DNA of 54,125 nt, from the IMG/VR virus record IMGVR_UViG_3300048834_001323, positions 1 to 54,125 of that record. One strand, 5' to 3'. Both the position numbers and the translations under genes were made by a program. Shown here in pieces: positions 29,168-49,759 of the stretch (positions are counted from its first letter, which is position 1; the number at the start of each line of letters is the position of its first letter). This DNA is from a virus. Taxonomy: Duplodnaviria > Caudoviricetes. The notes beneath the pieces were generated by a model that was not told the DNA's origin, made no database searches, and worked only from the letters and a program-made list of their open reading frames with translations.

Positions 29168-30136
29168 ATGGAAAATTATTGGGGTAATTACACAGTCGTT
29201 AGTGAGGAGTGTGCGTCGGTCGAGCAGCCTGATCCGGGACAGCTTTGGCCTCGCGGCGGGGACAGGCGCGGCCATGAAGAGGGTGCCGGTCATATTATTC
29301 AGGATGAAGGCACCTCGCAAACCGCCAGGTCGAAACTGAACTTTGTCGGCGCGGGCGTGACGGTGACGGACGACAGCGGCGATGATGCGACAGTCGTTAC
29401 GATTACCGATACTCCCACCGTCACTGCCTGCCAGCGCGACATCACGCAAACCGCGCACGGCCTCGCGCTCGGCGACATTGCGAAATTCGACACCGCTTTC
29501 ACCAAAGCCAAAGCGGACGCAGCCGCGAACGCCGACGTGATTGGCATAGTTTCGGCAGTCGCGGATAGCGATAATTTCACACTGGTATCAGATGGTTTTG
29601 TAACCGATTTGTCGGGTTTGACTGAGGGGCTTTATTTTCTCGATCCCACAACGGCGGGTGCAATGACGCAAACCGCGCCGACCTCGCCGGGGCAAGTCTC
29701 CAAGCCGGTATTTTTCTCGGTTTCGACAACGTCGGGTTATATCCTAAACCAGCGCGGCATCGTCATTCCGACGCCTGCCGATATTCACGAAACTTTAACT
29801 ATTCCCGTTTCTGACAACACGACCGAGCTTGTGACAGGAGCTTCGGACATGGCGTTCCCGATGCCGTTTAATTTCACGCTGCAAAGTATAAAGGCGAATG
29901 TGACAGGAGCATCGAGCAGCGGCGCAGTTACGATTGACGTGAAGAAAAACGGCACGACTATTCTCTCTACGAAAATCACGATTGACGCGAGCGAAAAAAC
30001 GAGCCTCGCAGCGGCAACAGCAGCGGTTATCAGCGTCACGTCATTCAGCATTGACGACGAACTTACATTCAGCATTGACGCGGCTGGAACCGGCGCGTTT
30101 GGCGCGACGGTGACGCTACAAGGAGTTCGCGCATGA
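29168..30136 (+). CDS. Tail fibre/receptor-binding protein
   Basis: IQDEG..RSKLNFVGAGVTVTDD, ITQTAHGL..KAKAD..VIGIV and TIDVKKNGTTILSTKITID modules common in fibre proteins. Confidence 0.7.
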   Translation: MENYWGNYTVVSEECASVEQPDPGQLWPRGGDRRGHEEGAGHIIQDEGTSQTARSKLNFVGAGVTVTDDSGDDATVVTITDTPTVTACQRDITQTAHGLALGDIAKFDTAFTKAKADAAANADVIGIVSAVADSDNFTLVSDGFVTDLSGLTEGLYFLDPTTAGAMTQTAPTSPGQVSKPVFFSVSTTSGYILNQRGIVIPTPADIHETLTIPVSDNTTELVTGASDMAFPMPFNFTLQSIKANVTGASSSGAVTIDVKKNGTTILSTKITIDASEKTSLAAATAAVISVTSFSIDDELTFSIDAAGTGAFGATVTLQGVRA

Positions 30137-30786
30137 GTGTGAACATCGTTAGTCCTTTTAGTTTAGCGAAGCCCTACACACCGCCTACAAGCGGTCAGGT
30201 GGTCTATCTCAAACCCAACGCGCCGGGCAGCGGCACGACTTGGAGCGACCAAAGTGGAGCAGGAAATCACGCTACGCTCATGGGCGGCGCGACGTGGGGT
30301 AGTGGTGAAATCGCGCTGAATGGCACGACCGGCTACATTAAAATCCCCGGCTCGGCGTCCATGCGCGGCATGGCAGGTTTGACGCTTTGTTGCTGGGTAA
30401 GAAAAGCAACGAAGGATATTAAACCGTGTGTGTGGTGGACGCCCAACAACCATTACAATTTCCGAGAAGTTTCCGGCGCTTTGCAGTTTTACTTGAATAC
30501 GACGTCGGCAAAAGGCACCATTGGTGGCACTGGCTCGACAGGCGTTCATTTTTATTGCGCTCGGTATGACGGCGCGACGATGGCTATCTATAAAGATAGC
30601 GTGCTCGTGTCTGGGCCAGTATCAAAAACCGGCACAGTGAACGACACTTCTGGCGGCGATGTGATATTGGGCGCAGAATACAATTTAGGGTTAAACCAAA
30701 ATGGCGGGTATAAGCGATTCTTAATGTATAATCGCGCGCTGAGCGAAGCAGAAATTTCAGTAATGTATCGTGGCTTCATGTCGTAG
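30133..30786 (+). CDS. LamG/concanavalin A-like lectin domain protein
   Basis: TTWSDQSGAGNHATL, RYDGAT..Y, MYNRALSEAEI. Confidence 0.8.
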   Translation: MSVNIVSPFSLAKPYTPPTSGQVVYLKPNAPGSGTTWSDQSGAGNHATLMGGATWGSGEIALNGTTGYIKIPGSASMRGMAGLTLCCWVRKATKDIKPCVWWTPNNHYNFREVSGALQFYLNTTSAKGTIGGTGSTGVHFYCARYDGATMAIYKDSVLVSGPVSKTGTVNDTSGGDVILGAEYNLGLNQNGGYKRFLMYNRALSEAEISVMYRGFMS

Positions 30787-30803
30787 GACAAGGAAAATTT
30801 ATC

Positions 30804-31019
30804 ATGGCAAATTCAGCATTTGAACTGACAACTGGACTGAAGGGCGCTGATGGCACGAATGGCACGAATGGTACTGACGGCGTGTTTTCAGCAATCAACT
30901 CGCAAGTCGAAGCCGAAGCCGGAATCGAAAACACGAAGGGCATGACGGCACTACGAACCGCGCAGGCAATCGCGGCACTGGGCGGCGGCGTTTCCGACCT
31001 CACGACCTACCCACTCTGA
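30804..31019 (+). CDS. Small fibre-like protein with a short Gly-X-Y repeat
   Basis: AAGGA RBS; GLKGADGTNGTNGTDG and EAEAG..MTALRTAQAI motifs. Confidence 0.55.
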   Translation: MANSAFELTTGLKGADGTNGTNGTDGVFSAINSQVEAEAGIENTKGMTALRTAQAIAALGGGVSDLTTYPL

Positions 31020-31201
31020 GCGCCGTCGTATCGAATTTTCACCAGGAACTTCTCATGGCGCGGCAAGGGGGCGGAGTCGACGCTGTTGGAAGCTGGAGGT
31101 GTTGTGTCGTCAACCGGCTCATTCGGTTTGCATCCAGCAAAGCAGCTTATGGCAACAGCAGCGGCCAAGAAAGCAGTCCAACATCTGAGATTCGTTTTCA
31201 T
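31007..31201 (-). CDS. Small lipoprotein
   Basis: AGGAG RBS, MKT..R, hydrophobic core, FAGC lipobox. Confidence 0.6.
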   Translation of the reverse strand: MKTNLRCWTAFLAAAVAISCFAGCKPNEPVDDTTPPASNSVDSAPLPRHEKFLVKIRYDGAQSG

Positions 31202-31226
31202 TTTTTGCTTCTCCTTAATTACGTTT

Positions 31227-31433
31227 TTATACAACAGGCTCTTCCAGAGGGCCAATCCAAGATGGCGTATCTCCCATTATATCGAGAAGCATGGACTCTT
31301 TTTGAGAGGGGTAAATTACTTCGCCGCTTTCGATGTCCACATAGACAATAATGGCAATCGGCAACTTGCATTCCGGGTCTGTCATCCAATACCATCCCGT
31401 TTGAGTTGGTCTTTCTTTTGTCCACTCCATCAA
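31227..31433 (-). CDS. Hypothetical phage protein
   Basis: WTKERPTQTGWYW..WIGPLEEP pattern; GGAG RBS. Confidence 0.65.
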   Translation of the reverse strand: MMEWTKERPTQTGWYWMTDPECKLPIAIIVYVDIESGEVIYPSQKESMLLDIMGDTPSWIGPLEEPVV

Positions 31434-31446
31434 TCTTCTCCTATAA

Positions 31447-31983
31447 TTAAACGAGCGACAAGGATTTTACCAGAACCCCATCCTTTGCCGCGATGTAGAT
31501 GGCTAAACTATCATAAGAATGCTCCGAGACGCTCTCCCAATCACAAGCATCCGGCCCAAAGTAATCGCGCACCGCCAACTGAACAAGCTCTTTAGGAACC
31601 TTTCGACCGGCGATGTTGGCGACCTTTTTGATGTCGTTCGGGCTGTAGTATTCCGCCAGTTTGTTGTAGCGCACTTCAAGAATGGAAGCGACCGCTGCGG
31701 CTCTCGCCATCTCGCCCATCGCGTTCGCGTTTTGCGCGCCGCCATGAGGCATTTCAAAAAGCAGGCCTGCCGGATCGTGTTGCTTAATAATGCGGCGCAA
31801 GGACTTGTAAAGCCCCTGCACCCGCAAAATGTTGTCGTCGGCCACGCGCATTTGCAGCTTCTTGTTCGCCTTTGGCATATTGATGACGCCATGATCAACA
31901 ATCCGTTCGGACGGGACTTCAATCACAGCCCATCCCCATGTTCCTATGCCGACATCGCTGAGTAAAATGTTTTTCATAGTCAA
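31447..31983 (-). CDS. RuvC-like Holliday junction resolvase
   Basis: DVG..WGWAVI, LLFE, YSPNDIKK, HSYDSLAI. Confidence 0.8.
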   Translation of the reverse strand: MTMKNILLSDVGIGTWGWAVIEVPSERIVDHGVINMPKANKKLQMRVADDNILRVQGLYKSLRRIIKQHDPAGLLFEMPHGGAQNANAMGEMARAAAVASILEVRYNKLAEYYSPNDIKKVANIAGRKVPKELVQLAVRDYFGPDACDWESVSEHSYDSLAIYIAAKDGVLVKSLSLV

Positions 31984-32201
31984 GTATCACTGAATAAAAT
32001 CCCGCATCCCATCATCAGAACAGACCACTCCATATCCGTTAATTCTATTTCTTCATGGATTTTATTGAGAATATAGGCCGGAGTTTTCCCCTCCTGAATC
32101 CCCTCCATCAAAATCACACTTGCCTGCTCCGACTTTTCGCCGGATAAAATCTGATCCGGCCCCACTTCATCTAAAAAATGAATTTCTCTTGTGTTTGGCA
32201 T
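31980..32201 (-). CDS. Hypothetical protein
   Basis: AGGAG RBS; ATGA coupling to the RuvC-like gene. Confidence 0.6.
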   Translation of the reverse strand: MPNTREIHFLDEVGPDQILSGEKSEQASVILMEGIQEGKTPAYILNKIHEEIELTDMEWSVLMMGCGILFSDT

Positions 32202-32203
32202 TT

Positions 32204-32677
32204 TTATTTCTCCTTGTAAACAAATACATTGTCCGGCAACGCCTCCAACAAATTCAGAACGGCTTTATCTTTTGTTTCTTCCTGGCCGCGCCACGTTGGA
32301 AATTCCAGCGCGATCCTGTCCCATTTATCAGACCAAAAATCAAGCATCCTGACCGAGTTCTTCACGACCGCATCATTGACGGGGCCATGCTGATTGTCGT
32401 GCGTTTGGAATAGGCCGGGAATGGTTGTGAGATTGCATTCAGGCAGGCATATCTCTCCGGCGTGCATGATGCCGTAGAGCTTTTTCTGCTTTTTACGCCG
32501 ATGCAACAATTCCCCGAACGCGACCGGCATCCACTTGAAATGCTTAGTAGCGACCGTTCCTTCGCCTCGATCCAGTATGACCCTGCCCTGCTTATCGACG
32601 AGGCTACCGGCGCATACAAAGATGGCATCGGCTACGTCCAACTCTTCCCATATATCTTCTCCTATAATTAAATTCAT
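32204..32677 (-). CDS. Divergent macro-domain-like protein
   Basis: DIW..DAIFV..VDKQG..RG..FQT..IALEFP pattern resembling phage ADP-ribose-binding proteins. Confidence 0.5.
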   Translation of the reverse strand: MNLIIGEDIWEELDVADAIFVCAGSLVDKQGRVILDRGEGTVATKHFKWMPVAFGELLHRRKKQKKLYGIMHAGEICLPECNLTTIPGLFQTHDNQHGPVNDAVVKNSVRMLDFWSDKWDRIALEFPTWRGQEETKDKAVLNLLEALPDNVFVYKEK

Positions 32678-35265
32678 ACCTCATCCTCCGCCATGCGTCT
32701 CAGTTTGATGTATCTCTTTCCTCCAGACCGGCCCGACTTGTAATCAATTCCGGCTTTTCTAAGATTAGGAGATATTCTGGTTAAAGCAGTAGAAAACCAT
32801 TTAGTGCTTGTCGGCCAAGAGTCGGAGTTTCTGTTTTCAGCCAAAGCCCTCCGGTTAAGAATTTCTCTTAATTCCGTTGGCGTTGATTCATAAAACGATT
32901 TTGCCTCCATCAATCGCACAATCTCACTGCCAAGCGGAGAGTTTTCTAAAGCAAGCTCGACAAGCTCATCACGATTGTCCATCAAGACTTCCATGAATTT
33001 TCCGTTTTCCCAGGGCATCAATTCCTCACCGGCCACAATGCGTTTTACAAAGTCAGCCATGCGCGGCGTCTTTTCCAATTTTACGTTGTCGATGTTGGCG
33101 AGACTGTGAGCGATCACATCAAATATCCAGCCCAGTATTCCCGGCTGCAATTCTTCTACTTTAGTATTGATTTCGTTTTCGTCAATACGATTGGAGTCGC
33201 TGATCGGAGGCAGGTTACAGGCAAGGCACCTGTTTTGAAAGTCTTCGCGGCCAAGAAGAGGCTCGATGCCGTTGACAATCATAGGACGCTTGGCGTTGAA
33301 GAGGATTTCTTCGTCATCGGTATGGAGCTTACGGGTGCGAAACCCCTGCCCCGTCGCCAACTGGCACAAGGCGTCTGACTGCCACTTTGAAAGACCGGAC
33401 AGGTTGTCGAAGCCAATCACATACGAGTTGCGCGCGGTGATGGCAAGGTCGCGTTCTTCCCGAACAGAGGAACCAATGAGCGGTGTAAAGTTCGGGTCGA
33501 TAATCTTCTTCAAGATGCGACAGGTCGTGGACTTGGCGCTGCCTTGCTCCCCGTTAATCGCCAGCACCGGAAAGGATGCCGAGGGCGGGAACATAGCGTT
33601 TACCATCCACGCGACCATCAACATCCAGTCTTCGTCATGCCCTGCGTTAATGAGTGGCCGGAGCTTGTTGATGTCGCCGCCCCTGATCGGCAGCGGCAAC
33701 TCCCAAAACCCCTTCGGCCTGCGGAAGTAAACCGGAGGGTCGTTAGTCAGTTCCCAACCATTATCACAATCAGCGCCAATTTTAACGACCGTATTATCAT
33801 CGCGCGCCAGGTCGATATAAATATGACCTTCATGCCACGCCGACCGAATCCAGACTTCCTCTTTGAATCGCTCGTTGAGAGCGTAGCCTTTGAGCGTTCG
33901 CATCGCATTATCCAATGCGGAGTTGTCGATCATCTTTCCTGTTTTGTTGTAGTAAAAATAATACAGGCGATGGCCGAGCAGGGAGTCTTCCATCGGATAA
34001 ACCATGTTGATGCCGTTTTGAGGAATGGTGATGTAGAAAGCATCCTCTTCGGTATAGAACGGCCTCGCTCCGGCATCCATCAGCATCCGACCCAACTGTT
34101 CGCTCTTGGCGGCTTTGGCATCAGATGAATCGCGCTGCACTTCTTCTTTCTTGGCCTCTTCCGTTGAGGGCGCGTTGTCAGACCACTCCGCCAACTTCGC
34201 AGGACTGACGCGGGAAATACCCTTGAGCGATTCGATAAACGCTTCTTTATCGAAACCGGCAAACTCATAGTAATCCGAGATGTCGCAGCCTTCCTTGCCC
34301 ATCAATTCGTAAGCATGGTAAGCAAGGCCAATGGATTCGGCGCGCTCAACGGCGCGAACGGTTGCTCTGTGTCCTGTGGGGTCGTTATCAAAGGCGATGT
34401 GAATGCGGCCCACATGAGCGGCCTTGCAGTCTTCGATAATGGCCTCGATCATACGCGCCTCGCCCATCGGTGAAATCGCTTTGACGCCGATTTGATGGAG
34501 CGACCAAACGGACACTTCGCCGTTGACAATCCATAAATCCTTGTCTTTGGCCTCCTTCATAGCGGGGTGGTTGTAGCACTTGGGAATGGCCGCTGAATCG
34601 CCGGGAAGCCACCTGTATTTGATGGGCTTCTTGTTTTTTCCGTATTTTAGTCCCGCCTGTTCAGGATCGAACATCTTCTCACGGTAACGCATGGACTTAC
34701 CGCTAATGGTAAAAGTAGGGTAGGCCCATGATTCTTTTCCGGCGCGAATGCCGAAATGATCCATCGTCGCTTTAGAGATGCCGCGCTCTTCCAATGTGCG
34801 GGTATCTACTTCTTTTGGTTTCTTGGCATCACTTTTAATAACAACAGAATGAGAAGATTTAGCTCCATTCAAAGCAGAACCGATGCTGCTGTTATTGAGG
34901 CCAAAAGAAGAGGTTGGGCTGGTGCCGTTTTTTGCCTTGTAGTTTTTGTATGGCTCGAAATGGTCGGGATTGATACCGGCTAATTTGGCGACTTCAACGG
35001 ATGTGTATTTCTTCTGGCTTTTGCGGTCGAGCGCGTTCCCTTCCTGAAAAAGCATGAATCCATCGTCACCGGCATTAAGCTCGCCGCCTTCGGGGTTAGC
35101 GCCATGATACTCGATTTTGCCGCTGGACTTGACCGGAGACAAATTCAATAAAGCAGCGACATCGGCAACGGTGATTTCTTCAGATGGAGCAGGCGGGATA
35201 AATGTTTGAGCGACAGGCTCTCCCACGAATATCTGCTCCGGCATTGCTCCGTTGGCTGTAGACAT
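32674..35265 (-). CDS. Toprim primase fused to an ATPase/helicase domain
   Basis: WIVNGE..IHIAFDNDPTG..DISDY Toprim motifs; GEQGSAKST Walker A, FDNL, RKLHTD; ATG 35265 after GAGGAG. Confidence 0.85.
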   Translation of the reverse strand: MSTANGAMPEQIFVGEPVAQTFIPPAPSEEITVADVAALLNLSPVKSSGKIEYHGANPEGGELNAGDDGFMLFQEGNALDRKSQKKYTSVEVAKLAGINPDHFEPYKNYKAKNGTSPTSSFGLNNSSIGSALNGAKSSHSVVIKSDAKKPKEVDTRTLEERGISKATMDHFGIRAGKESWAYPTFTISGKSMRYREKMFDPEQAGLKYGKNKKPIKYRWLPGDSAAIPKCYNHPAMKEAKDKDLWIVNGEVSVWSLHQIGVKAISPMGEARMIEAIIEDCKAAHVGRIHIAFDNDPTGHRATVRAVERAESIGLAYHAYELMGKEGCDISDYYEFAGFDKEAFIESLKGISRVSPAKLAEWSDNAPSTEEAKKEEVQRDSSDAKAAKSEQLGRMLMDAGARPFYTEEDAFYITIPQNGINMVYPMEDSLLGHRLYYFYYNKTGKMIDNSALDNAMRTLKGYALNERFKEEVWIRSAWHEGHIYIDLARDDNTVVKIGADCDNGWELTNDPPVYFRRPKGFWELPLPIRGGDINKLRPLINAGHDEDWMLMVAWMVNAMFPPSASFPVLAINGEQGSAKSTTCRILKKIIDPNFTPLIGSSVREERDLAITARNSYVIGFDNLSGLSKWQSDALCQLATGQGFRTRKLHTDDEEILFNAKRPMIVNGIEPLLGREDFQNRCLACNLPPISDSNRIDENEINTKVEELQPGILGWIFDVIAHSLANIDNVKLEKTPRMADFVKRIVAGEELMPWENGKFMEVLMDNRDELVELALENSPLGSEIVRLMEAKSFYESTPTELREILNRRALAENRNSDSWPTSTKWFSTALTRISPNLRKAGIDYKSGRSGGKRYIKLRRMAEDEV

Positions 35266-35289
35266 AAATAATACTCCTCGCATATAAAC

Positions 35290-35415
35290 AAAAAGGCGCT
35301 GCACTTAGAGGAACCGTCCAAGCCGTTCAGAAAGGGATGTGCGGCCCCAACTTGAACGGCTCCTCTAAAAGCAGCGCCTTATTGATCGCACATTTTAGCG
35401 GGTTCTGAAGCCCGA
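35290..35415 (-). ncRNA. C4/P4-CI-like structured leader RNA upstream of the primase
   Basis: Long interrupted hairpin 35294-35379 whose apical region is complementary to two 7-mers just upstream on the same transcript; U-run after the stem. Confidence 0.55.
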
Positions 35416-35422
35416 ACAACAA

Positions 35423-35431
35423 ATTATAACA
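35423..35431 (-). promoter_or_regulatory. Extended -10 promoter (TGTTATAAT)
   Basis: Perfect TGnTATAAT just upstream of the structured leader. Confidence 0.6.
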
Positions 35432-35466
35432 AAAATAATAGCGGAGCCAATCGGCCCCGCTATTAT
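35431..35466 (-). terminator. Rho-independent terminator after the SSB-like gene
   Basis: ATAATAGCGG/CCGCTATTAT stem followed by TTTT on the - strand. Confidence 0.65.
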
Positions 35467-35488
35467 CATTACTTCCTAAACGACCGAC

Positions 35489-36661
35489 TTACCAAGCCAC
35501 TCGGCCTTCAGCGATTTCTTTCATCAACAAAGCGCAACCGGCAGCTTTGGTGTTGAGGTCAATCAAGGCGTTGAGCGGCTTCTTCTTCATCGCAACCAAC
35601 CGATTGTTGATGGCGGCGAGGGCTTCTGCATTGTCGCAGAATTTCACCGTGTCCAGCATTTCATCATCGGCCTTGTCGATCAGCAAGCGAAACGAATCGC
35701 TGAGTTCAGGAACGCCGTTCTCAGCCATACGCGCGGCTTCAGCATCAGCGGCGCTTTGACCGAAGATGTCATCTTCGTCTTCGTCGTCATCCGATTTCGA
35801 CTTGGCCTTTGCTACAACGTCACCAACAGCGTCGTTGATGTTGCCTGCTTTCTTCTTGGGCGCTTCAGATTTTTCTTCAGCGACCGTTTCTTCATACGCG
35901 GCATCGAAATCAAAATCGCCTTCTTTAGACTCTTCGCTTTTAGATTCGGCTTTAGCTTTGATTTGCTTCTTAGCTTCAGCGATTTCTTCTTCAAGGGCTT
36001 TGATGGCATCTTCAGCGTCTCCGGCAGAAATGTTGTCAATGTCGCCGGTCACAATGTCTTCAAGGCCATACGTCTTGGCGACATTGATGAGATTCTTGAT
36101 TTTGGCGACCTGCTGTTGAAGATGCTCGGTGTCGGCAGCGCCGCTATTCTCCGGGCGATCCTTCCAGCGCACATACGTTTCGGAAACTGTGATACGAGGA
36201 ATGGATTTGAGGAGGGAGGAAACATCAACCACGTTACCGTAAATTTTACCGTCTTTAGGTTCGCTGTGATTGATCGTCACCTGGCAGTTTGCGCCAAGCA
36301 GGGAGGCGATGTTGAAGCCGCGCGGCTTTTGTTCATCAGCGGTCAATTTGCGTCCGAGCATCGCTTCAATGTCTTTGCGAAGACGCGCTTTTTCGTGGAG
36401 TGATAAGACGTAGCGGCGAGAGACCAAGAAAGGTTGACCGCCGTATTTCTCATCCGACTCCGGCACTGTTTCGGTCGTGAGCCATGAAAGCAGGATGTGC
36501 GGCTTTTCGCCTTTGCTTACGCCCTGGAACTGCACTTCGATCATGCCGAGGCTGCGAATGTCGCATACGACTGCTTGATACGCGCCTTCGGGATGGGGAA
36601 TTGATTTTCCGCCTGCTCCCACTTCTGCAAAAAATTCGTCTGCTGTTTGTCCTGTAGCCAT
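35489..36661 (-). CDS. Phage ssDNA-binding/replication protein with acidic tail
   Basis: PEGAYQAVVCDIRSLG..LSLHEKARLRKDIE..LLGANCQVTI OB-like N-terminus, D/E-rich C-terminus. Confidence 0.65.
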   Translation of the reverse strand: MATGQTADEFFAEVGAGGKSIPHPEGAYQAVVCDIRSLGMIEVQFQGVSKGEKPHILLSWLTTETVPESDEKYGGQPFLVSRRYVLSLHEKARLRKDIEAMLGRKLTADEQKPRGFNIASLLGANCQVTINHSEPKDGKIYGNVVDVSSLLKSIPRITVSETYVRWKDRPENSGAADTEHLQQQVAKIKNLINVAKTYGLEDIVTGDIDNISAGDAEDAIKALEEEIAEAKKQIKAKAESKSEESKEGDFDFDAAYEETVAEEKSEAPKKKAGNINDAVGDVVAKAKSKSDDDEDEDDIFGQSAADAEAARMAENGVPELSDSFRLLIDKADDEMLDTVKFCDNAEALAAINNRLVAMKKKPLNALIDLNTKAAGCALLMKEIAEGRVAW

Positions 36662-36801
36662 TGTCTTTTTCCTTATCGGCCTGTTCGTTCAGACCTTTTC
36701 TAATTGGGCGCTTTTCAGCGCTGTGTTCTTTTTGCCCGTAGGCTGTGTTCTGTTTGCGGCGATCACTGTTTGGTTGGCATCACCTTTCTTATGAGTGGAG
36801 T

Positions 36802-36830
36802 ATCTTATTTACTATTCAGGAATTTGTCAA
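36802..36830 (-). promoter_or_regulatory. Sigma70-type promoter
   Basis: TTGACA-17 nt-TAAGAT. Confidence 0.65.
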
Positions 36831-36836
36831 GTCCCA

Positions 36837-37199
36837 TTATTTTACGACTTCAAAACGTTCAGGGAGTTTGAGGCAGAGAGGGCAGACCCACCCCATCTTC
36901 GCAACCACTTTGTAGCCCATCGCTTTTAATGATTCGTCCATCGTTTCGCCTTCGCGCCGGATAATGATTTCCGACTCATGGCAGTATCCTCAGCCAACAA
37001 CTGTGCGATCCGCTTGGCGAAAGTTTCCGCGATCCCTCTCTTCCATCATGGCATCAGCGGTCTGATATGACAATCTTGCCAGCAACGGAGGGTCGGATAT
37101 TTTATTGCCCATCAACGCGACAAGCGCTAAACCAGCGAAGTCATCACGTAACTTAACTTCTTCTTTTGTTTTTCCCATGCTTTGCAGAGCTTTGCTCAT
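36837..37199 (-). CDS. 120-codon ORF with one in-frame TGA (36990-36992): Zn-finger-like protein by readthrough/Sec, or a nonsense allele
   Basis: AGGAG RBS; LRDDFAG..ADAMM domain, then VVG*GYC..GWVCPLC..TAA in the same frame. Confidence 0.55.
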
Positions 37200-37213
37200 T
37201 TTATTTCTCCTTG

Positions 37214-37783
37214 TCATTTAATCGAGACGTGATCGCCACGCTCTAACACCGTCACGCCTGGAATGTATAAATTCGGGTTTTCTTTGAGGGCCGCTTCGAT
37301 TTCTTCCCGAATCGGCATCGGCACATGGCGAACATACTCTTCGGGCAGCATGACCGGATTGATGTCCAGCGGCACCTTGCCGCCATTGCCGCGAATAGAA
37401 ACGACCAGATGCTTGACCTGCACTTTGGTCGTTCCTATAAAGTCGAGCAATCGCCGGATGTTAGACTTGTTTTCAGTCTGCATCATAGCGTCGATCTTGT
37501 TGAGACCTTCAAGGCGTTTGACTTCAGCTTTGCGCGCCTCGATTCGCGCTTTCATCTCCTTGTCGAAGATCGCTGCGTAGAAAAGAGCGTCTTCCTTGCT
37601 GGCGTAACAGGCGTTGAGCAGGCGCTCGTATTCCAGCGCATTTTCTTCGGTAGACACATCGCCCTGAACTTCGTGCATGAACTCATCCAGTTCGCTAAAG
37701 GCGCGGCTGATGCCGTAGGTGCCGCTGTTGATGCGTTTTTGGGGTGGTATTTCAAACTTCTCTTTCTCTTTTTCTTTTAACAT
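37214..37783 (-). CDS. Siphovirus Gp157-like protein
   Basis: IEARKAEVKRLE, SIRGNGGK.PL, LPEEY, ERGDHVSIK. Confidence 0.8.
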   Translation of the reverse strand: MLKEKEKEKFEIPPQKRINSGTYGISRAFSELDEFMHEVQGDVSTEENALEYERLLNACYASKEDALFYAAIFDKEMKARIEARKAEVKRLEGLNKIDAMMQTENKSNIRRLLDFIGTTKVQVKHLVVSIRGNGGKVPLDINPVMLPEEYVRHVPMPIREEIEAALKENPNLYIPGVTVLERGDHVSIK

Positions 37784-37796
37784 GATTCAATTCCTT

Positions 37797-38405
37797 TTAC
37801 GGTCTTCTTAAAATTCGGTAGCGAGTGTCAGTTGCGCCCTTCTGCCAAACCATCCACGAGAAATCCATTGTCGGACTTTTACCTTTCTCCTCCTCCAAAA
37901 AGCTCGGCCTCCAGTTGAGAGGTAATACATAGGACGGCGGATTATCTTCAAATAATTCCGTTCGGCTGGAGGCGTGCCAGTATTGAGACTTTAAGAAGAT
38001 AGCAAATCCATCTAAATCGAAATCAATACATTTCTCAATAAATTGAGAGGCAAGAGTAAATGGAGGGTTTGTCACAACCCAATCTCCCATTTTTACAGGA
38101 TGAGTTAAAAAATTCACATCGCCTTCGCCGTAACCCCTATCAATCAGATCGGTAGAAATTACGCTATAAGAACGAGAATCAAAAACCTTGCTGATATGCC
38201 CTTCTCCGCAGGCAGGCTCCCATATCGCAACATCGAGAGGAATGTTTAAGAAGTCAATCAAAGCGATTGTCGCTTTTTCTGGAGTTGGATAAAAATCTGA
38301 TTCTTTACGTTTTGTAGAACCCGCTCCGCCTATAATAGTGCTTGATTTTATTGGCGGCACTTCAAAAGAGGTCGTTTCTTTGGTCTTGTTTTCGGTTTTT
38401 AGCAT
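37797..38405 (-). CDS. DNA amino-methyltransferase (probably N6-adenine)
   Basis: DFYPTP, WEPACGEG, VVTNPPF. Confidence 0.85.
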   Translation of the reverse strand: MLKTENKTKETTSFEVPPIKSSTIIGGAGSTKRKESDFYPTPEKATIALIDFLNIPLDVAIWEPACGEGHISKVFDSRSYSVISTDLIDRGYGEGDVNFLTHPVKMGDWVVTNPPFTLASQFIEKCIDFDLDGFAIFLKSQYWHASSRTELFEDNPPSYVLPLNWRPSFLEEEKGKSPTMDFSWMVWQKGATDTRYRILRRP

Positions 38406-39236
38406 GATGCTATCTCCTGTTCAATTCTATTTCTGGCTACTTCAAAGTATTTATCGTCCATCTCGATGCCGACAAACTTCCGCTTGGTGCGTATGGCTGC
38501 GGCTCCGGCGGTGCCACTGCCCATTGCGAAGTCCAGTATCTTCTCATTTTCGTTAGTGTAGGTCTTGATGAGGTATTCAAGGAGAGCAACGGGCTTTTGG
38601 GTGGGGTGGAGTCTTGGTTTAGGCCTGCGGGACGCAACTTTAATAATACTGCCAGGATTCTTTGATTCGGCATCATATTTATTTGCATCAACTTCCTCTA
38701 ACTCAGCCCCCGGTTGATGGTCGGTTTTCCCTTTCTTAAAAGTGGTTCCATTATTCTGGTAAGCCTTCACAATCTTCATTCCTGATTCCATTCTCTTCAT
38801 TGGCTGCTTATTAAAACAACCGCGCCCGTCATTAAAAACCGAAATGATTTCATGGTATTTCATAGGCATAAAAGCCGCTGTCGCCATTCCGGAAGGACAA
38901 GTTTTTTCCCATATCCAATCATACTTGAACCAATCTAAATTACTGATCCGCAGAACACTGCTAAAAGGCTCGGAACCAAACAAAACAATCGCCCCTTTCG
39001 GCTTAATCAAGCGCTTCAACTGCAACCACATTGGCTCAAACGGGATCACACTGTCCCATTTACAGGCCGTTGTGCTAACCGTAGGGAGGGTCACAGATAA
39101 TTGCGTCAAAGCATTTATCAGGCAATGATGCCATCACTTCCAAACACTCACCGTGATGCAGTATTGCCGCGACCTTCCCTACGTTGTTTCTCACCTTCCT
39201 TGTCTCAAAAGTCATGCCTTGCAGACCGTTGGTCAT
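38399..39236 (-). pseudogene. N4/N6 DNA methyltransferase interrupted directly after DPPYG
   Basis: ORF 39236-39075 ends ICDPPYG*; TTACKWD..HPTQKP..LDFAMGSGT continues in the +1 frame. Confidence 0.75.
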
Positions 39237-39249
39237 TTATTATTCTCCT

Positions 39250-39822
39250 TTAGTAAACATCATTCTTTCGATCCTGCTTTCTATTCATGTCGTTGTTCCA
39301 TCCCGGCACCGTATAAAGATAGGGTGCCAAATTCTTGGGTAAATATAACGGATGACCCGGATACCCTTCTTTGGTCACATGAAGGCAATGCAAGAGCGGG
39401 AATAAACGCACAATCTCTTTGTCGCGCCCCATGTGTCCACCATCCGCGCCCCACCCTGCCACAATCACCGGACACTGCTTTGCCATCTTAATCAGGTGCT
39501 TGTCGTTGTCGGGGCCAATGGGATCAAACTCGACCTTCATGCGCGCTGGCAGCGTAGCCCGAAACGCAAAGATGTTGCCCATGTATAAGCCGCCTGCGCC
39601 CCAGTCCATCGCAAAGTTGATGATACGGCTAATGGTCGGGTCGTTTTGGGCATGGTCTGCGGAACTGGGGTTGAGGCCAAAAAAAAGTAAAGGCGATAAA
39701 TCCTCATTCCATATCCTTTTCAGCGTGTAGCGATATTTTTCGCAGGGAGAAAACTCGGCCTCGCTATACATCTCGACCATCTCCCCGTCGTGATTGAACG
39801 TCATTGTGGCTGATTTTTTCAA
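39250..39822 (-). CDS. DUF1643 family protein
   Basis: YRYTLKRIW, GLNPSSAD..DPTI, NIFAFRAT, GWG, HPLY. Confidence 0.85.
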   Translation of the reverse strand: MKKSATMTFNHDGEMVEMYSEAEFSPCEKYRYTLKRIWNEDLSPLLFFGLNPSSADHAQNDPTISRIINFAMDWGAGGLYMGNIFAFRATLPARMKVEFDPIGPDNDKHLIKMAKQCPVIVAGWGADGGHMGRDKEIVRLFPLLHCLHVTKEGYPGHPLYLPKNLAPYLYTVPGWNNDMNRKQDRKNDVY

Positions 39823-40043
39823 AACGCCTCCTCCATCAATTTCCAGTTGATGATTTCCACTTCGACTAATTTGGCATCCACCCCGACACGATCTCCTTCT
39901 AAGGAAGCTATTTGATCCTTGACTTCTTCCAACTGGTCGAAATCGGATAGCCGGAAATTTTCGTCAAAGTCGAGTATTGTGGAAGAAATGCTCTTCGCCT
40001 TTCTGTTGATATGACATTGATACGACACAAAGTATTTACGCAT
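39819..40043 (-). CDS. Hypothetical protein
   Basis: GGAGG RBS; coupled to the next gene. Confidence 0.6.
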   Translation of the reverse strand: MRKYFVSYQCHINRKAKSISSTILDFDENFRLSDFDQLEEVKDQIASLEGDRVGVDAKLVEVEIINWKLMEEAF

Positions 40044-40121
40044 TATCCTCCTAAGACGACGCTGAAAAAGTATCCGAGCAGTCCGAATAGAACGCCGTAG
40101 AATACAGCTAATTGGAAGGCA

Positions 40122-40673
40122 TCAGTGTTGAGTATGTGTTTCATTCTTCTCCTTTGGTTTATTCTTCATATAAAACCGAATCCCTTCCATCATCAATTCC
40201 TTTTCATGGAAGCCCGAAGGAGTAGAATGAAACGATTCAGGTATTTCAATCGTAATCATTCGGCGCGTCAACACATCGGGCAGATGATTGAACAAAGCGG
40301 TGATGATAAAATGGGTTTTACTGGTGTCTATCACGACTTCTTCATCGGTGTATAAGGCGCGATGATTGATGTTGCCTAAAGCAATGGCCCTTGTAATAAC
40401 CTCCGACATACTCCCCGTCACTCGCGGCAAACCATCGTAGGTTAGCGTGTCGAATTGGCGCATTGCGGAAATCATTTCCGATTCTTTCCATGAGTGGAAG
40501 ATAATCATTGGCTTGTTGTCGAGTATTTCATTGATGGCCGAAGCCATAATGGTTTTTCCGACTCCCTGCTGTCCTATAATAAGCAATCCTCGTGGGGCAT
40601 CAGATACTCGGCCAGCACGCCTATCCAGCACCCCGTCGCAAAACAAAGCTGCTTTCTGGTAGATGTTCAACAT
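40122..40673 (-). CDS. Stand-alone P-loop ATPase resembling the primase helicase domain
   Basis: LLIIGQQGVGKT, TYDGL, RALYTDEE, TRR. Confidence 0.65.
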   Translation of the reverse strand: MLNIYQKAALFCDGVLDRRAGRVSDAPRGLLIIGQQGVGKTIMASAINEILDNKPMIIFHSWKESEMISAMRQFDTLTYDGLPRVTGSMSEVITRAIALGNINHRALYTDEEVVIDTSKTHFIITALFNHLPDVLTRRMITIEIPESFHSTPSGFHEKELMMEGIRFYMKNKPKEKNETHTQH

Positions 40674-40678
40674 ATAAA

Positions 40679-41065
40679 TTATCCGCCTCCGGGCCTGATG
40701 ATTTTTTTAACAAGCGGCGTTTCAATGACAACCTCTTCGCCGGTCGCAACATTCTGAGCCTTAAAAATCATGCCTTCTTTATTTTCTAATGCGATGGCCG
40801 TGAGGGTGATAAGTTGTCCAAGAAGCTCCATGCTGTTGCAATGCTGCTTGGAGCCTTTGCCCGTCGATCTCGATTTGATGCTAATGACCCATTGATTAGC
40901 CGGATCGTTATCAAACTTTTCGTTCGGAACGGCCAGGACAATTAAATTCACAGTCTCGGCAGACGGCGTGACTTCTTTCAATTCCTTCAAAGAAGAAGGA
41001 GCAGTCTCTTCAGACCGCTCCTCTTTTGTGTCTTCGATGAAGAATCCTGGAGTATCTCTTTCCAT
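40679..41065 (-). CDS. Hypothetical protein
   Basis: AAGGA RBS before MERD. Confidence 0.6.
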   Translation of the reverse strand: MERDTPGFFIEDTKEERSEETAPSSLKELKEVTPSAETVNLIVLAVPNEKFDNDPANQWVISIKSRSTGKGSKQHCNSMELLGQLITLTAIALENKEGMIFKAQNVATGEEVVIETPLVKKIIRPGGG

Positions 41066-41084
41066 GTTGATTCCTTTTTTGTTT

Positions 41085-41651
41085 TTATAATTGAGCGGCA
41101 ACGTCTTGCTGGAGCGATTCGCGCCGCTTGGCGGTTTGCTTCATCACCTTACGGCCTTCGCCCGTCACGCTGTAATACGTCACGCCTTTGCCGCCCTGCA
41201 TCGACTTGGCCTGACCACGCGCTGACTTGATGAAGCCGCGCGACTGCAAGCGAGACAGGCAAGCGTATAAAGCGCCCGTAGCGATGGGGAAGCCGATCTT
41301 ATTGAGTTCTTCCTTGATCGCCACGCCATAAGCGTCTTTTTGGAGTTTGTCGGAGGCCATCATCGCCAGTTCTTCGGTCGTGTTGATGACCATGAGACTG
41401 CGGGATGGAGGCGCGATGGTTTCTTCTTTTTTATCGACGACTGGCTTTGGATCGACCGGAGCGGCCTTGATCGGCTCGGCCTTTGGCTCGGCCTTTGGCT
41501 TCGGCGCTGATACCGCTTTCTTGGCCTCGACCGGCTTCTTGGTAGCCGGAGCTTTAGCTGCGGCCTTCGCAGCGATAACTTTCTTTTCTTTGGGCGCGGC
41601 TTTCGGTTTTGCTGCGACTTTTGCTTTCTTGACTTTTTCTTGATCTGACAT
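41085..41651 (-). CDS. PadR-like winged helix protein with K/A/P-rich N-terminus
   Basis: AYGVAIKEEL..GALYACLSRLQSRGFI..YYSVTGEG. Confidence 0.8.
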   Translation of the reverse strand: MSDQEKVKKAKVAAKPKAAPKEKKVIAAKAAAKAPATKKPVEAKKAVSAPKPKAEPKAEPIKAAPVDPKPVVDKKEETIAPPSRSLMVINTTEELAMMASDKLQKDAYGVAIKEELNKIGFPIATGALYACLSRLQSRGFIKSARGQAKSMQGGKGVTYYSVTGEGRKVMKQTAKRRESLQQDVAAQL

Positions 41652-41687
41652 AATAAGTAATTCTCCTTTGGTGTTTCTTGAATGATG

Positions 41688-41716
41688 AATTTAATATAAC
41701 GAGATGATTTTGTCAA
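41688..41716 (-). promoter_or_regulatory. Sigma70-type promoter
   Basis: TTGACA-17 nt-TAAATT upstream of 41651. Confidence 0.5.
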
Positions 41717-42019
41717 TCAAATTTTACGACGCGCTTGCTGGCGGTTGTTTGCGGCCAAAGAAAGGGCTTCCGATCCGGCCTGCGTAATGGCGAATAATGA
41801 GACGTTGCTCTTGCCGCGAATCGCCTTGATCTTGACTTTTGACTTTGAGACCAATCCCTTCTTCTCCATTCGATTGGCGGCAATATAAAACTGCCCGTCA
41901 TTGGCGCTGATGCCGATGTCTTCGATCAACTCCTTGCACTCCGTCCCGGTAAGGGGGCCACGCGCCTGAAGTATCAAGAGAATGATTTCTTCGGCTGGCC
42001 CTAAAAAGTTATTTTTCAT
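41717..42019 (-). CDS. PadR-like winged helix protein
   Basis: LGPAEEIILLIL..GQFY..RMEKKGLV..FAITQAG. Confidence 0.75.
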   Translation of the reverse strand: MKNNFLGPAEEIILLILQARGPLTGTECKELIEDIGISANDGQFYIAANRMEKKGLVSKSKVKIKAIRGKSNVSLFAITQAGSEALSLAANNRQQARRKI

Positions 42020-42282
42020 GTTGCGTTGTTGACTTTCAATCCTTTGGTGTGGCCGTCTCTATAAGAAACATAGCCATGAATGATTTTGTCTTCTTCGTCG
42101 GTTACGGTAATCAGCGTGTAACCCAAACTCTGATGGCTCGGAGATGGGTATTTCCTGATCGCTTCTTTGGCCGTTTTAATGGCCGCTGGCAACTTGTGTT
42201 TGATGATGCAATCGACCGGCGTTCTCTTATGCGGTGTCGAGCCTTTGAAGATGTGCGTGATGGTGATCGCATACATACTCAT
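42016..42282 (-). CDS. Hypothetical protein
   Basis: GAGGA RBS; ATGA coupling. Confidence 0.55.
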   Translation of the reverse strand: MSMYAITITHIFKGSTPHKRTPVDCIIKHKLPAAIKTAKEAIRKYPSPSHQSLGYTLITVTDEEDKIIHGYVSYRDGHTKGLKVNNAT

Positions 42283-42387
42283 ATCCTCTTCGCCACCTTT
42301 TTCCCCACCTCGTAGAAAAATACGAATACGATGATAAATAAAATGATTCCCATGCTGTGTAAACCTCCGGTTATCGTGTAACTCCTT

Positions 42388-42831
42388 TTACTCTTCGCCG
42401 TCTTTAGCGAAAAGATCAATTTCTCCGTTCCAAAACAGCGCGCCATCGACCGGCTTTTCATTCTTACCCGTCACTAAGCCGTGTTCCAGATCGGCATCAT
42501 ATAAACGCCTTCGTCTTTCTTGCGCGCTATCATGTTGCATTTGGATGATGCGCCCTGCTTTCATATAAAGAGGACTACACGCCTTGTAGCGCGCCAGTTT
42601 CGGAGCGCTGAGGTATGACCATGTATAACGCGGAAAGTCTTCAGGGTGCATGGATAATCGGTGTTGCTGGCGTGCCTTGTGCTTGGCGACGGCTGCCCTG
42701 ATGTCGTCGGCTTCGGGCTTCTTGAGGCGCTTGATGCCAATGATGAATTTGATTTGACTGGCGGCAACTTTATAAGAGTGAAACCATTGCCATTGCCATT
42801 TTTGACCGCTTTTAGGTTTGAGTATTTTCAC
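42388..42831 (-). CDS. Hypothetical basic protein
   Basis: AAGGA RBS, GTG start; operon context. Confidence 0.55.
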   Translation of the reverse strand: MKILKPKSGQKWQWQWFHSYKVAASQIKFIIGIKRLKKPEADDIRAAVAKHKARQQHRLSMHPEDFPRYTWSYLSAPKLARYKACSPLYMKAGRIIQMQHDSAQERRRRLYDADLEHGLVTGKNEKPVDGALFWNGEIDLFAKDGEE

Positions 42832-43540
42832 AGTTAATCCTTTGGAGGTAAATCTTCTCTATCTTTTCGGTCATCGCGCGATACTTCCAATCCATATTCA
42901 ATGGATGGCAATATAAGGAGCAATGCTGCGATAAATGGTGATCCTTATACAGGTATAAGGCGCGATGTTTTGGATGATGCTCTTGAAAGTAACGATCCAT
43001 CGCCGCTTGCTGACCGCGCGCCACATACTCAGCTACTTTTCTTGGCCGCAATCCATTTGCCTCCATATAAATAGAGAAGATCAATTTTCCTCCCGAATTA
43101 GGAGCGTCCAAAGAAAGCCCTGCGTTGAATTGCTCGTATTCTTTAGCCATGCGCGCCTCTTCATTGCAGAAACATTCGTGGCACACTTTGAGTAAGCGGT
43201 TCTTGCCTGGAGTTGTGATGGCGTTTTTGTGTTCGGTCGTGGCGTTGCATAGCTCACAGTTAAAGAAGTCATCATTTACATCGGGATTGACGGGAACGCC
43301 CAAACCCCGACCGCCAAATTCTTCTTCGACGATATAATGGCGCACTGTAATCATGTCCAATACTCCGAATAGCTTCTTTACGACCTTCAAGGCAAACATC
43401 ACGGAGTCGCTTGTATAAAACTCATCGAAGACGTTGTTATAAGCCGTTAATTCATCTTCTGTTAATTCGATGTCGGACACGTCGCATTGTGATGGATTTT
43501 GAAGCCATTGGTCGCGCTGTTCTTGAGTTGTTTTTTGCAT
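42812..43540 (-). CDS. Hypothetical protein with CxxC..CxxC Zn-finger
   Basis: CELC..CHEC; AAGGA RBS. Confidence 0.6.
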   Translation of the reverse strand: MQKTTQEQRDQWLQNPSQCDVSDIELTEDELTAYNNVFDEFYTSDSVMFALKVVKKLFGVLDMITVRHYIVEEEFGGRGLGVPVNPDVNDDFFNCELCNATTEHKNAITTPGKNRLLKVCHECFCNEEARMAKEYEQFNAGLSLDAPNSGGKLIFSIYMEANGLRPRKVAEYVARGQQAAMDRYFQEHHPKHRALYLYKDHHLSQHCSLYCHPLNMDWKYRAMTEKIEKIYLQRINCENTQT

Positions 43541-43571
43541 TTTATTCCTTTAATACTAAATTATGTTTAGC

Positions 43572-44444
43572 TTAATCAGCGGTCGGTCGGGCGAAACCAT
43601 GCTTTAATACTCTTTTGCCTGCCGCAACACGCCAAACCTTGTTTTTTCCACTGGCCCTAACCGTTGGATGTTCGCCTTCGCTATGGCGTATGCTGGCGGG
43701 GCCGGTGACGTAATACTCAACCGGACTAAAATACTCGCGTTCTCCGATTTGAATAAAGCCTCGATTCTTGGCCGCTTCACTTCTTTCTTCTTCTCCCATC
43801 ATCGCCAGTTTGTCGACAAAGCTATAAGGCTTTCCGGCTCCAGTGCCATAAGAAACAGTTTTTGGCTCCATCGGAACGATATAAGTGTTTCCGGTTGCCC
43901 AAAGCTGACCGCCTTTAAGTGCGCGAACGTGATGTGTTTCACGGATTGTTACCATATTTTCGGTAATTTCTCGCGCGTCTTCAGGAAGTTTTTTGACAGG
44001 TATAAACGCCACGTCGCCATTGCGGATAATCCCTGAAAGCTCGCGTTCTTTTACGCCCCAGATTTTACAAAGTGCCATGCGTATTCCCGCCGTAGGATCG
44101 TCGCTTGTCATTTTACCCGCCGCGCGAACGTCGCAAGGATGCGCGAATGGTTCGCCGTTTTCCACGCGGCCAATCAGGAAGTAATCTTTTTTGACTTGAT
44201 TGAATCTGCGCGGATGAAAAATACACTGCCTGACTTGTATAACAGCCAATTCCTGTAATTCATCATAGGCATATAAAGCAACATTAACCGCGCTGCCTCG
44301 TTGTTTTCTGTCGCTTTCGATGCCTAATTCATAGGCTTCGCCATCTAATTCTTCAATGAGCTTTTTGACAAATTCTGGAGTGCAGCTTTCACGGATTGCG
44401 CCCCAGTCATTGCGTGTTACTACTGTCTGATTTAATGTATCCAT
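43572..44444 (-). CDS. Hypothetical phage protein
   Basis: AAGGAG RBS before MDTLNQ; RNGDVAF..HH..H.EH motifs. Confidence 0.65.
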   Translation of the reverse strand: MDTLNQTVVTRNDWGAIRESCTPEFVKKLIEELDGEAYELGIESDRKQRGSAVNVALYAYDELQELAVIQVRQCIFHPRRFNQVKKDYFLIGRVENGEPFAHPCDVRAAGKMTSDDPTAGIRMALCKIWGVKERELSGIIRNGDVAFIPVKKLPEDAREITENMVTIRETHHVRALKGGQLWATGNTYIVPMEPKTVSYGTGAGKPYSFVDKLAMMGEEERSEAAKNRGFIQIGEREYFSPVEYYVTGPASIRHSEGEHPTVRASGKNKVWRVAAGKRVLKHGFARPTAD

Positions 44445-44481
44445 TGTAATCTCCTTACTCCTAAATAATTTTCCCTGCGTT

Positions 44482-45045
44482 TCAATCGCCATAAATAAAA
44501 CCGTCATCGCCTTTATAAAGGCTGATTGTCGGAAATGCGTGGGAGGCATCGGTGAGTTTTTCGGCGTTAAGGTCGCCATATACTCCGGTTTCCCGATCCC
44601 AAAATCCACTTCCATGCCCATTTCTCGTAAGAAGAAAATCATACCCTGCCTGAGCGAGTTGCCTGTCTGTAAAGCACAGTTCTAACAGATGAGCGTTATA
44701 AAACCGCGCGCAATCAATGCGCGCTGATTCGATGAAAGATTCGGCAATCTCGGCGTCATCCCACTCTTCGCTTTCGTCATCTTCTGCCCACATCGCACAT
44801 TCCATATAAGCGTCATAAAAGACTTCAAAGGAGTGTTCAGTTTTCTCCAGCAAAGCCTTGATAGCATATAAGGACGCCAACTCTTTGCCGTCTAACGTGT
44901 CCATATAAAGGCGTTCGGCTTCGGCTTCGGCTTCGATGACTTCGCTCCAGTATTGCGGCGGCGGTCGCCATGATTCATTCATCACAAACTCTTGGCGCAA
45001 TTCTTCCAACTCTTCGATTCGATCCTGCAATTCGTTTTTTGTCAT
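44482..45045 (-). CDS. Acidic early protein
   Basis: AGYDFLLTRNGHGSGFWDR..GDDG.IY motif; preceded by the conserved leader. Confidence 0.7.
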   Translation of the reverse strand: MTKNELQDRIEELEELRQEFVMNESWRPPPQYWSEVIEAEAEAERLYMDTLDGKELASLYAIKALLEKTEHSFEVFYDAYMECAMWAEDDESEEWDDAEIAESFIESARIDCARFYNAHLLELCFTDRQLAQAGYDFLLTRNGHGSGFWDRETGVYGDLNAEKLTDASHAFPTISLYKGDDGFIYGD

Positions 45046-45066
45046 GTTGTTACCTTGTAAATTAGA

Positions 45067-45249
45067 TTAGCTGCGCTTAAAGCGGAGCTTATTTTGATTG
45101 ACTTTGTAGCGGCCAAAAGGAAGTGTCTTACTTCCAGTTATAATACTGCTTGCGCTTGAAATTTCCCGCTTTTCGTCGCAGCAGTCGCAAATGTTCAGCG
45201 ATGCTGAGTTTCTTCTTACTTGTCTTGTAAGGATTGATCTTGCCGTCAT
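45067..45249 (-). CDS. Small basic protein with CxxC
   Basis: ATGA coupling with the upstream gene; ICDCC. Confidence 0.45.
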   Translation of the reverse strand: MTARSILTRQVRRNSASLNICDCCDEKREISSASSIITGSKTLPFGRYKVNQNKLRFKRS

Positions 45250-45527
45250 TCTTGCGCTCCAATTCCTCGCCAGCAATTCGTGTTTTCTTGTTTGCCATAC
45301 TTTGTAAACCTCCAAGACTTTTGGAACCACCTGCGGCCTATCACTTCGATTTTATAAGGAACCGTTACGCCGTCAATCGTTTTAGGTGATAACTCTTCGA
45401 TTATCTTTAATCGTGCTGCTTCATAATCAAAGCCAATAGTAATCCCCATATTCAATACTTCAGGAGTTTTGTTAAGACGCGATAACTTCAAAATTCCTAC
45501 AATTTCTTGTTGTGTTTTAATGTCCAT
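45246..45527 (-). CDS. Hypothetical early protein
   Basis: AGGAAAGTAA leader. Confidence 0.6.
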   Translation of the reverse strand: MDIKTQQEIVGILKLSRLNKTPEVLNMGITIGFDYEAARLKIIEELSPKTIDGVTVPYKIEVIGRRWFQKSWRFTKYGKQENTNCWRGIGAQE

Positions 45528-45589
45528 TGTTTTACTTTCCTATAGGTTTATAAACCTGCCTTGCGGCTAAATAAGTTTGTTGTGACGCT

Positions 45590-46006
45590 TTACCATTCCG
45601 AATCTAATACGACGCTACCACTTTCCAACATTCGATCAATCTCGGATATAACACAATAACCGCGCCATCCATAAACTTCCTCGCATGATATAAGCTCGCC
45701 GTTATCGTCACGATCCGCAGTCATTGTATAAATGGTGCAATCGGTTAGTGCGCCAACTTCCTCAGGTCTTACAGTTTCAAGCGAAGAGTTTGCCCAATGT
45801 TCTTCTAATAGCGACCAAAGAAGATTATCATCATTTTGCCACATTGACGGGTGCCGTTTATAAGTCGCTTTTTCCTCAGCGATGTATCGGCGTCCTTTTC
45901 CTTTCAATACAATAATCATGCGTTGCTTATTGTAGAGAATTGTGGTGAGCTTGCCGCGCATTATTGTATAATCGGCGTTTTGTGTTGGATTCTTTTCTTT
46001 GTGCAT
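45590..46006 (-). CDS. Hypothetical early protein
   Basis: AGGAAGTAA leader; follows palindrome copy 1. Confidence 0.65.
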   Translation of the reverse strand: MHKEKNPTQNADYTIMRGKLTTILYNKQRMIIVLKGKGRRYIAEEKATYKRHPSMWQNDDNLLWSLLEEHWANSSLETVRPEEVGALTDCTIYTMTADRDDNGELISCEEVYGWRGYCVISEIDRMLESGSVVLDSEW

Positions 46007-46060
46007 TTTGTTACTTCCTATTGCCTAAAGGCACGCCTAAAGGCTAAATTAGATTTTGAG

Positions 46061-46127
46061 TTCTAACACTCACTGCAACGGCGCGCCATTATAAGCAATG
46101 GCGCGCCGCTGAGTGTGAAAGTTAGGT
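46061..46127. repeat. Intergenic attC-like imperfect palindrome, copy 1
   Basis: TTCTAACACTCACTGCAACGGCGCGCC-N12-GGCGCGCCGCTGAGTGTGAAAGTTAGGT. Confidence 0.85.
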
Positions 46128-49755: not shown

Positions 49756-49759
49756 ATCT

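Follow-up and report, generated by a model that had tools for sequence, protein, structure and literature searches.

Programmed readthrough of a UGA codon in phage Qbeta extends the coat protein into the product A1, and nonsense-interrupted accessory genes, for which there is no curated family, occur in prophages and phage mosaics. UGA has another role in bacterial selenoprotein genes, for which E. coli fdhF serves as the model. In these genes, the codon stands in frame where the homologues carry Cys, at the first position of a CxxC motif, with an intact frame behind it and a hairpin within 45 nt downstream. The consensus for these bacterial hairpins (SECIS elements), in the passages of PMC13188914 that set it out, includes a loop of 3-9 nt, an upper stem of 4-16 bp, a G in the first two loop positions, a spacing of 16-37 nt, and a folding energy of -7.5 kcal/mol or lower; the same passages record that some selenoprotein genes have SECIS elements outside this consensus (PMC13188914).

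The locus described here lies in a 54,125-base virus record classed as a provirus, and the whole of that stretch is referred to below as the window. In common with bacterial selenoprotein genes, the locus has an in-frame UGA at the Cys of its homologues and in first position of a CxxC, an intact frame behind the UGA, and a hairpin within 45 nt downstream. It differs from them in that no hairpin with a G in the first two loop positions is found at 16-37 nt, the UGA occurs in no relative, the site is apparently a structural metal site, searches of the window for tRNAs and selB showed no selenocysteine (Sec) machinery, and the UGA is also the natural end of a complete upstream domain. The Qbeta coat/A1 pair likewise has a UGA that closes a complete short protein and a frame that stays open behind it, but at this locus the extension would function only with a Cys-like residue at the stop itself, and no relative shares the arrangement. 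The likeness to nonsense-interrupted accessory genes consists of a single stop in an otherwise intact frame, a small, dispensable early-region gene, and a position in a slot that a related contig (from run X1, matched at 80% likeness) lacks or replaces, whereas the stop of the window coincides exactly with the codon of an invariant ligand, where a random hit has a low probability of falling. We consider that the TGA is probably a plain stop, originating from a TGC-to-TGA change or from a deletion joint, with the relic of a zinc-ribbon-like domain behind it.

Gene layout and the open frame behind the TGA

Table 1. Positions and character of the features at the locus
Feature	Positions	Strand	Description
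Shine-Dalgarno-like AAGGAGA	37206..37212	minus	6 nt upstream of ATG 37199; read from sequence
Gene A	36990..37199	minus	69 codons and TGA stop; small phage protein; motifs LRDxFAG ... ADAMMEERD; ORF and translation
RGNFRQADRTVVG, 13 residues ahead of the TGA	36993..37031	minus	N-terminal strand of domain B or native tail of protein A
In-frame TGA	36990..36992	minus	Codon 70 from ATG 37199; column of the first Cys of the CxxC motif
In-frame continuation, 50 codons	36840..36989	minus	GYC ... GWVCPLC; body of small zinc-ribbon-like domain (family B)
Hairpin of the preliminary description	36959..36989	minus	GGAUA/UAUCC and AUGA/UCAU; loop GUCGGAAA; -6.1 kcal/mol
Alternative, stabler hairpin	36947..36983	minus	+7 to +43 after the TGA; loop AAUCAUUA; -14.0 kcal/mol
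34-codon ORF MDESLK... (P0003)	36837..36941	minus	Gene finder; contains the second Cys pair only
TAA closing the continued frame	36837..36839	minus	Sequence
Sigma-70-like promoter site for the next gene (35489-36661)	36802..36830	minus	TTGACA-17-TAAGAT; 10/12 matches; 17-nt spacer

The product of gene A returned by the gene caller is P0002 (69 aa), and the residues across the TGA read, in the minus-strand translation, ...RTVVG(stop)GYCHESE...GWVCPLCLKLPERFEVVK. A preliminary description of this DNA had stated that the frame ending at 36990 runs on for 50 codons to a TAA just before the next promoter, and that the stop, with the GYC behind it, forms the first half of a motif paired with CPLC. 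All of this was confirmed, with residues exactly as quoted and a sigma-70-like site directly 3' of the TAA. By itself an open continuation is not unusual, at least 35 open codons being found after 18 of the 65 crude genes of the window. P0002 and P0003 are each the sole member of their cluster, on one contig.

The upstream neighbor of gene A (37214-37783) is Gp157-like (Pfam Sipho_Gp157, E 2.6e-15) and, as would suit a plain stop in gene A, ends in TGA itself. Just upstream of this neighbor, three adjoining minus-strand genes occupy 37797-39822. They are a 202-aa ORF that matches nothing in Pfam, a DNA methylase of 236 aa (N6_N4_Mtase, E 4.9e-26), and a DUF1643 protein of 190 aa (E 2.9e-39).

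Contigs of four metagenome runs were matched at 80% likeness, a level at which joints can come from other organisms, and one contig of run X1 joins 36834 to 37212, with flanking genes matched at about 85-95% likeness. The 377 bases skipped are exactly the A-B cassette, from the ribosome-binding site to just past the TAA, and because the joint skips exactly this cassette, it suggests an exchangeable accessory slot that is missing or replaced in the related contig, again with the reservation that the joint was found at 80% likeness. The sequencing runs gave small shares, at most 0.12, in 10 out of 10, with no RNA run listed among them, and none of the pieces listed for the four matched runs covers 36990-36992.

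Protein families on the two sides of the TGA

Family A, to which the part before the TGA belongs, was aligned with 10 relatives, seven of them from a word-free HMMER search of 1.84 billion representatives and three from the loci L001, L004, and L006. The 69-aa product aligns over its whole length and carries all ten invariant columns (LRD.FAG ... Y..ADAM..R), which include L17, D19, A22, Y45, A48, D49, A50, M51, and R55. It has the pattern LRDxFAG...ADAM[ML]xER that marks the family and is, as family members are, a short stand-alone protein; a Cys-rich domain is attached to none of the 10 relatives. The C-terminal tail after the invariant R is 14 residues long in the window, compared with 2-9 residues in eight of the 10 relatives and 19 and 45 in the other two. 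Gene A matches two PHROG families, both of unknown function (phrog_2201, E 6e-5; phrog_20565, E 4.4e-4). At locus L004, the end of the family A gene shares an ATGA with the start of the next ORF (2239-2406), which contains RRYGWVPPS and inside which the contig stops. Its YGWVPPS resembles GWVCPxC, but no relationship of the ORF to family B could be demonstrated, the hhalign probability of 4.3% not being significant.

For the part after the TGA, the HMMER search of 1.84 billion representatives found P0005 (63 aa), which matches the residues spanning the TGA with 43% identity (E 4.4e-5). A further four came from profile searches: P0012 (77 aa; read at loci L002 and L003 as well), P0013 (63 aa), P0014 (148 aa, with the B domain N-terminal), and P0015 (180 aa, with the B domain C-terminal to an unrelated region). 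These five relatives are all distant, and all five have CxxC/CxC...GWVCPxC. In each of them family B is separate from A, three being stand-alone proteins of 63-77 aa and the remaining two having the domain N-terminal in one case and C-terminal to an unrelated domain in the other. The invariant columns of the six-sequence alignment are a Gly, the first Cys, the second Cys of that pair, and G-W-V-C-P-x-C. The TGA of the window stands in the column of the first Cys, which is Cys in five of the five relatives and TGA in none, and every other invariant residue is kept (G, W, V, C, P, C, and the second Cys of the first pair).

Set against the two Cys pairs and GWVCP that characterize the family, the window has three of the four Cys, all encoded by TGC, with TGA as the first, and has GWVCPLC. 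It counts as a disrupted member of family B and not as an intact one. Judged from the alignments, the part after the TGA is no chance open frame, and A and B can be defined as two small unnamed phage protein families. The preliminary description had placed the TGA on the first Cys of a CxxC..CxxC domain, a claim that the Cys of five distant relatives strengthens. The premise of its Sec proposal is supported: The TGA occupies a Cys column that is invariant in a real CxxC...CxxC family. It had also looked to homologues for Cys or TGA at this column: The Cys was found throughout, but the TGA in none.

With the family formed by P0005 and P0012-P0015, the window shares the pattern G..(10)..CGxC...G[WY]...GWVCPxC, a size of 60-77 aa, and a predicted fold of hairpin, knuckle, helix, and hairpin. 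It departs from these proteins in the TGA at the first Cys, a 2-residue insertion before it, a position in frame behind another protein, and the lack of a separate start with a ribosome-binding site. In an AlphaFold2 model of the B part (mean pLDDT 76.7, core blocks 81-89), the first Cys pair sits at the turn of a predicted β-hairpin; a helix comes next, and another hairpin runs into CPLC. Nothing significant was returned when family B was compared with Pfam and with PDB sequences, and fold searches gave no match at E <= 0.001, the best being small zinc domains and uncharacterized phage proteins; PHROG matches were weak (phrog_8303 and phrog_12041). Because the model places a knuckle between two strands and the sole structural neighbors are weak zinc-domain matches, the first Cys-pair site has the look of a structural metal site and not of a redox CxxC. 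At locus L002 (1970-3782), the stand-alone B gene that encodes P0012 lies between a 317-aa ORF and a 183-aa ORF, which by eye from their translations look PHP-type and metallophosphatase-type, respectively, and no family A gene is nearby.

Where A ends and B begins in the window can be read in two ways. The relatives of family B have an invariant Gly 10 residues before the Cys, and the RG of the window lies 12 before the TGA, which calls for a 2-residue gap. The GNFRQADRT of the window also resembles the tail of the A relative P0004 (GAIRQPERV), and [RK]G occurs there in several A relatives. With the gap allowed, the 13 residues upstream of the TGA fit the N terminus of B about as well as they fit the P0004 tail. 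Because this stretch fits A or B, two origins stay under consideration, a nonsense change within an A-B fusion and a deletion joint where A ends.

No A-B fusion was found in the word-free HMMER search of 1.84 billion representatives (10 hits at E <= 0.001), among longer proteins, or among the 15 relatives (10 of A and five of B). Nucleotide and protein searches of a phage collection returned nothing for the region or for the read-through protein, and there was no match in a plasmid collection or, with 30000-50000 as the query, in E. coli genomes. Scans of genome contigs with the read-through protein and with the 390-aa neighbor found no relative, nor did a viral-contig scan with the Gp157-like neighbor or a metagenome scan with the B alignment; a metagenome scan with the read-through protein found relatives of the A domain only. 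DNA-level scans of viral, metagenome, and genome collections yielded no closer relative of the downstream part, and none of the collections searched gave a close relative of the cassette as a whole.

RNA hairpins and decoding machinery

The preliminary description had drawn a hairpin immediately 3' of the UGA. Its pairing, of 5 and 4 base pairs around a 5-nt bulge and with the loop 14 nt from the UGA, can be drawn, but it is absent from the minimum-energy fold, and the 71-nt region folds no better than dinucleotide shuffles of itself (z = 0.17; 108 of 200 shuffles at least as good). The stabler hairpin has its loop 20 nt after the UGA, and so low a minimum free energy in the 45 nt downstream is reached by only 6% of 600 random TGA triplets of the window; its loop is without G, and so has none in the first two loop positions.

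The SECIS scan was our own coding of the criteria set out in PMC13188914 and not the published bSECISearch. Under the criteria given in those passages, zero candidates were obtained after the TGA at 36990-36992, and the same scan passes 29% of 600 random TGA triplets, taken from the 1985 in the window. When the spacing was relaxed to 13 nt, the hairpin of the preliminary description alone appeared, at -6.1 kcal/mol. This null is evidence against Sec and not proof, because selenoprotein genes outside the consensus are recorded in the same passages (PMC13188914).

The window yielded no tRNA and no match to selB. With Rfam, 36700-37300 had no match at E <= 10, nor did the whole window have one at the gathering score. 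The stops of the 65 crude genes are TAA in 38 cases, TGA in 20, and TAG in seven, and global recoding of TGA in the window is ruled out by its use as the stop of those 20 genes. The best phage matches for the terminase, primase/helicase, and endolysin are 22-31% identical and have unrelated hosts, and an atlas search matched viral portal clusters only.

Readings of the TGA

Read as an ordinary stop, the TGA would yield a 69-residue family A protein that is complete without anything further, and the 50 in-frame codons behind it would be the untranslated relic of a zinc-ribbon-like family B domain. The locus could have come about by either of two routes. In one, an in-frame A-B fusion gene would have undergone a single C-to-A change, from TGC to TGA; because the other three Cys codons are TGC, one transversion would suffice. 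In the other, a deletion or recombination joint would have replaced the 5' end of gene B by the native 3' end of gene A, stop included. We infer that no residue is inserted at the TGA and, because the frame holds no second lesion, that the relic is recent.

Several observations sit poorly with a plain stop. The 120 codons of the read-through frame offer 54 single-step routes to a stop, of which one is at this codon and four are on the four Cys codons, and the B part alone offers 30 such routes, with four on Cys codons. A random nonsense hit on the Cys column is accordingly a coincidence of 2-13%, and an in-frame deletion joint exactly at the TGA codon is similarly unlikely. Further, the 50 downstream codons are without another stop or a frameshift and keep all invariant B residues, and the -14.0 kcal/mol hairpin starts 7 nt after the TGA. 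The low-probability position of the stop and the unlesioned frame behind it are what keep a sequencing error and Sec alive as explanations. Both are placed well below a plain stop because the stop leaves a complete A protein, because the 15 relatives include no A-B fusion, and because a singleton Cys/TGA pair that lacks a SECIS element is a typical false positive of selenoprotein screens.

If the TGA were an error of sequencing or assembly, or a minority variant picked up by the assembler, the codon would really be TGC and the product a 119-residue A-B fusion with a normal four-Cys site. One base parts the TGA from TGC, the codon of the three remaining Cys, the frame downstream is unbroken and keeps all its invariant residues, and the record is a single metagenome-derived contig whose P0002 and P0003 clusters have one member each. 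Nevertheless, consensus substitution errors are rare and this one would have to fall on a single particular base, and no fusion is seen in 10 relatives of A or five of B, so that we regard an error as unlikely. The peptide predicted by the gene finder (P0003) would correspond to a split gene, with a restart at ATG 36941 giving the 34 residues MDESLK...CPLC... behind a weak AAGG about 9 nt upstream, but such a peptide would hold one Cys pair, which is half the domain, and no relative of 34-135 aa begins at that point; a restart here is the least probable of the readings considered. Leaky termination, in which a few per cent of ribosomes would read the UGA by a near-cognate tRNA (as Trp, rarely as Cys) and make a minor A-B fusion beside A, is consistent with an open, homologous downstream frame, and a single strong Shine-Dalgarno site would serve both proteins. 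A metal site with Trp as its first ligand would, however, be destroyed, a G follows the stop, no recognized readthrough-promoting feature was seen, and the arrangement is in none of the 10 relatives of A and five of B, and we think it highly improbable.

The preliminary description had raised the possibility of a phage selenoprotein, in which SelB and tRNA-Sec of the host would insert Sec at the UGA and so produce an A-B fusion with a UxxC...CxxC site. The Cys of five out of five relatives at the UGA column is the classical signal of a Sec/Cys pair, and the intact downstream frame, the -14.0 kcal/mol hairpin with its loop 20 nt after the UGA, and the SECIS elements outside the consensus that the passages of PMC13188914 mention would all be in keeping with insertion. 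Against this, no hairpin meets the bacterial consensus, the stable one being without the loop G and the earlier one reaching -6.1 kcal/mol at a 14-nt spacing; TGA is present in none of the five relatives; the site looks, in the model, structural-metal rather than redox; the TGA, read as a stop, already yields a complete A protein and is a routine stop in the window (20 of 65); and neither a Sec tRNA nor selB is in the window. Of the features expected of a selenoprotein gene, then, the UGA at the Cys column of homologues was found, and a consensus SECIS element and conservation of the UGA were not. The Sec proposal does not hold up well on these grounds, and we rate it very unlikely. The same low standing applies to its most specific form, a natural two-domain A-B selenoprotein of a temperate phage in which Sec would be the first zinc-ribbon ligand, the 36947-36983 hairpin would act as a non-consensus SECIS element with SelB of the host, and the UGA would double as the stop of a short A form when selenium or SelB is limiting. 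Where the preliminary description had treated Sec or readthrough and a nonsense mutation or error as equally possible, the nonsense option is upheld but the equality is not, a nonsense change being better supported than Sec because the stop leaves a complete, normally stand-alone A protein.

If the TGA did encode Sec, the locus would hold a natural phage selenoprotein, of which no example appeared in the titles and abstracts of the literature searched, and Sec would occupy an apparent structural metal site and be decoded through a SECIS element outside the consensus. A plain stop at this codon carries a caution instead. The usual first filter for selenoproteins looks for a Cys/TGA pair and an intact frame behind it, and a singleton phage gene can come to pass this filter without a supporting SECIS element, conservation, or machinery.

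Two further sites in the window were noted. An in-frame TAG at 10574-10576 ends the gene at 10040-10576, and the next gene follows in the same frame; because that gene starts from an ATG of its own within a few codons, the boundary is an ordinary one. A tandem array at 47060-47347, made up of 12.5 copies of a 23-bp unit (GGCGCGCCAATAACTGCGACAGC) with 96% matches, sits between the minus-strand early genes 46137-46988 and 47357-47767 and could be an iteron/origin-like or protein-binding array.
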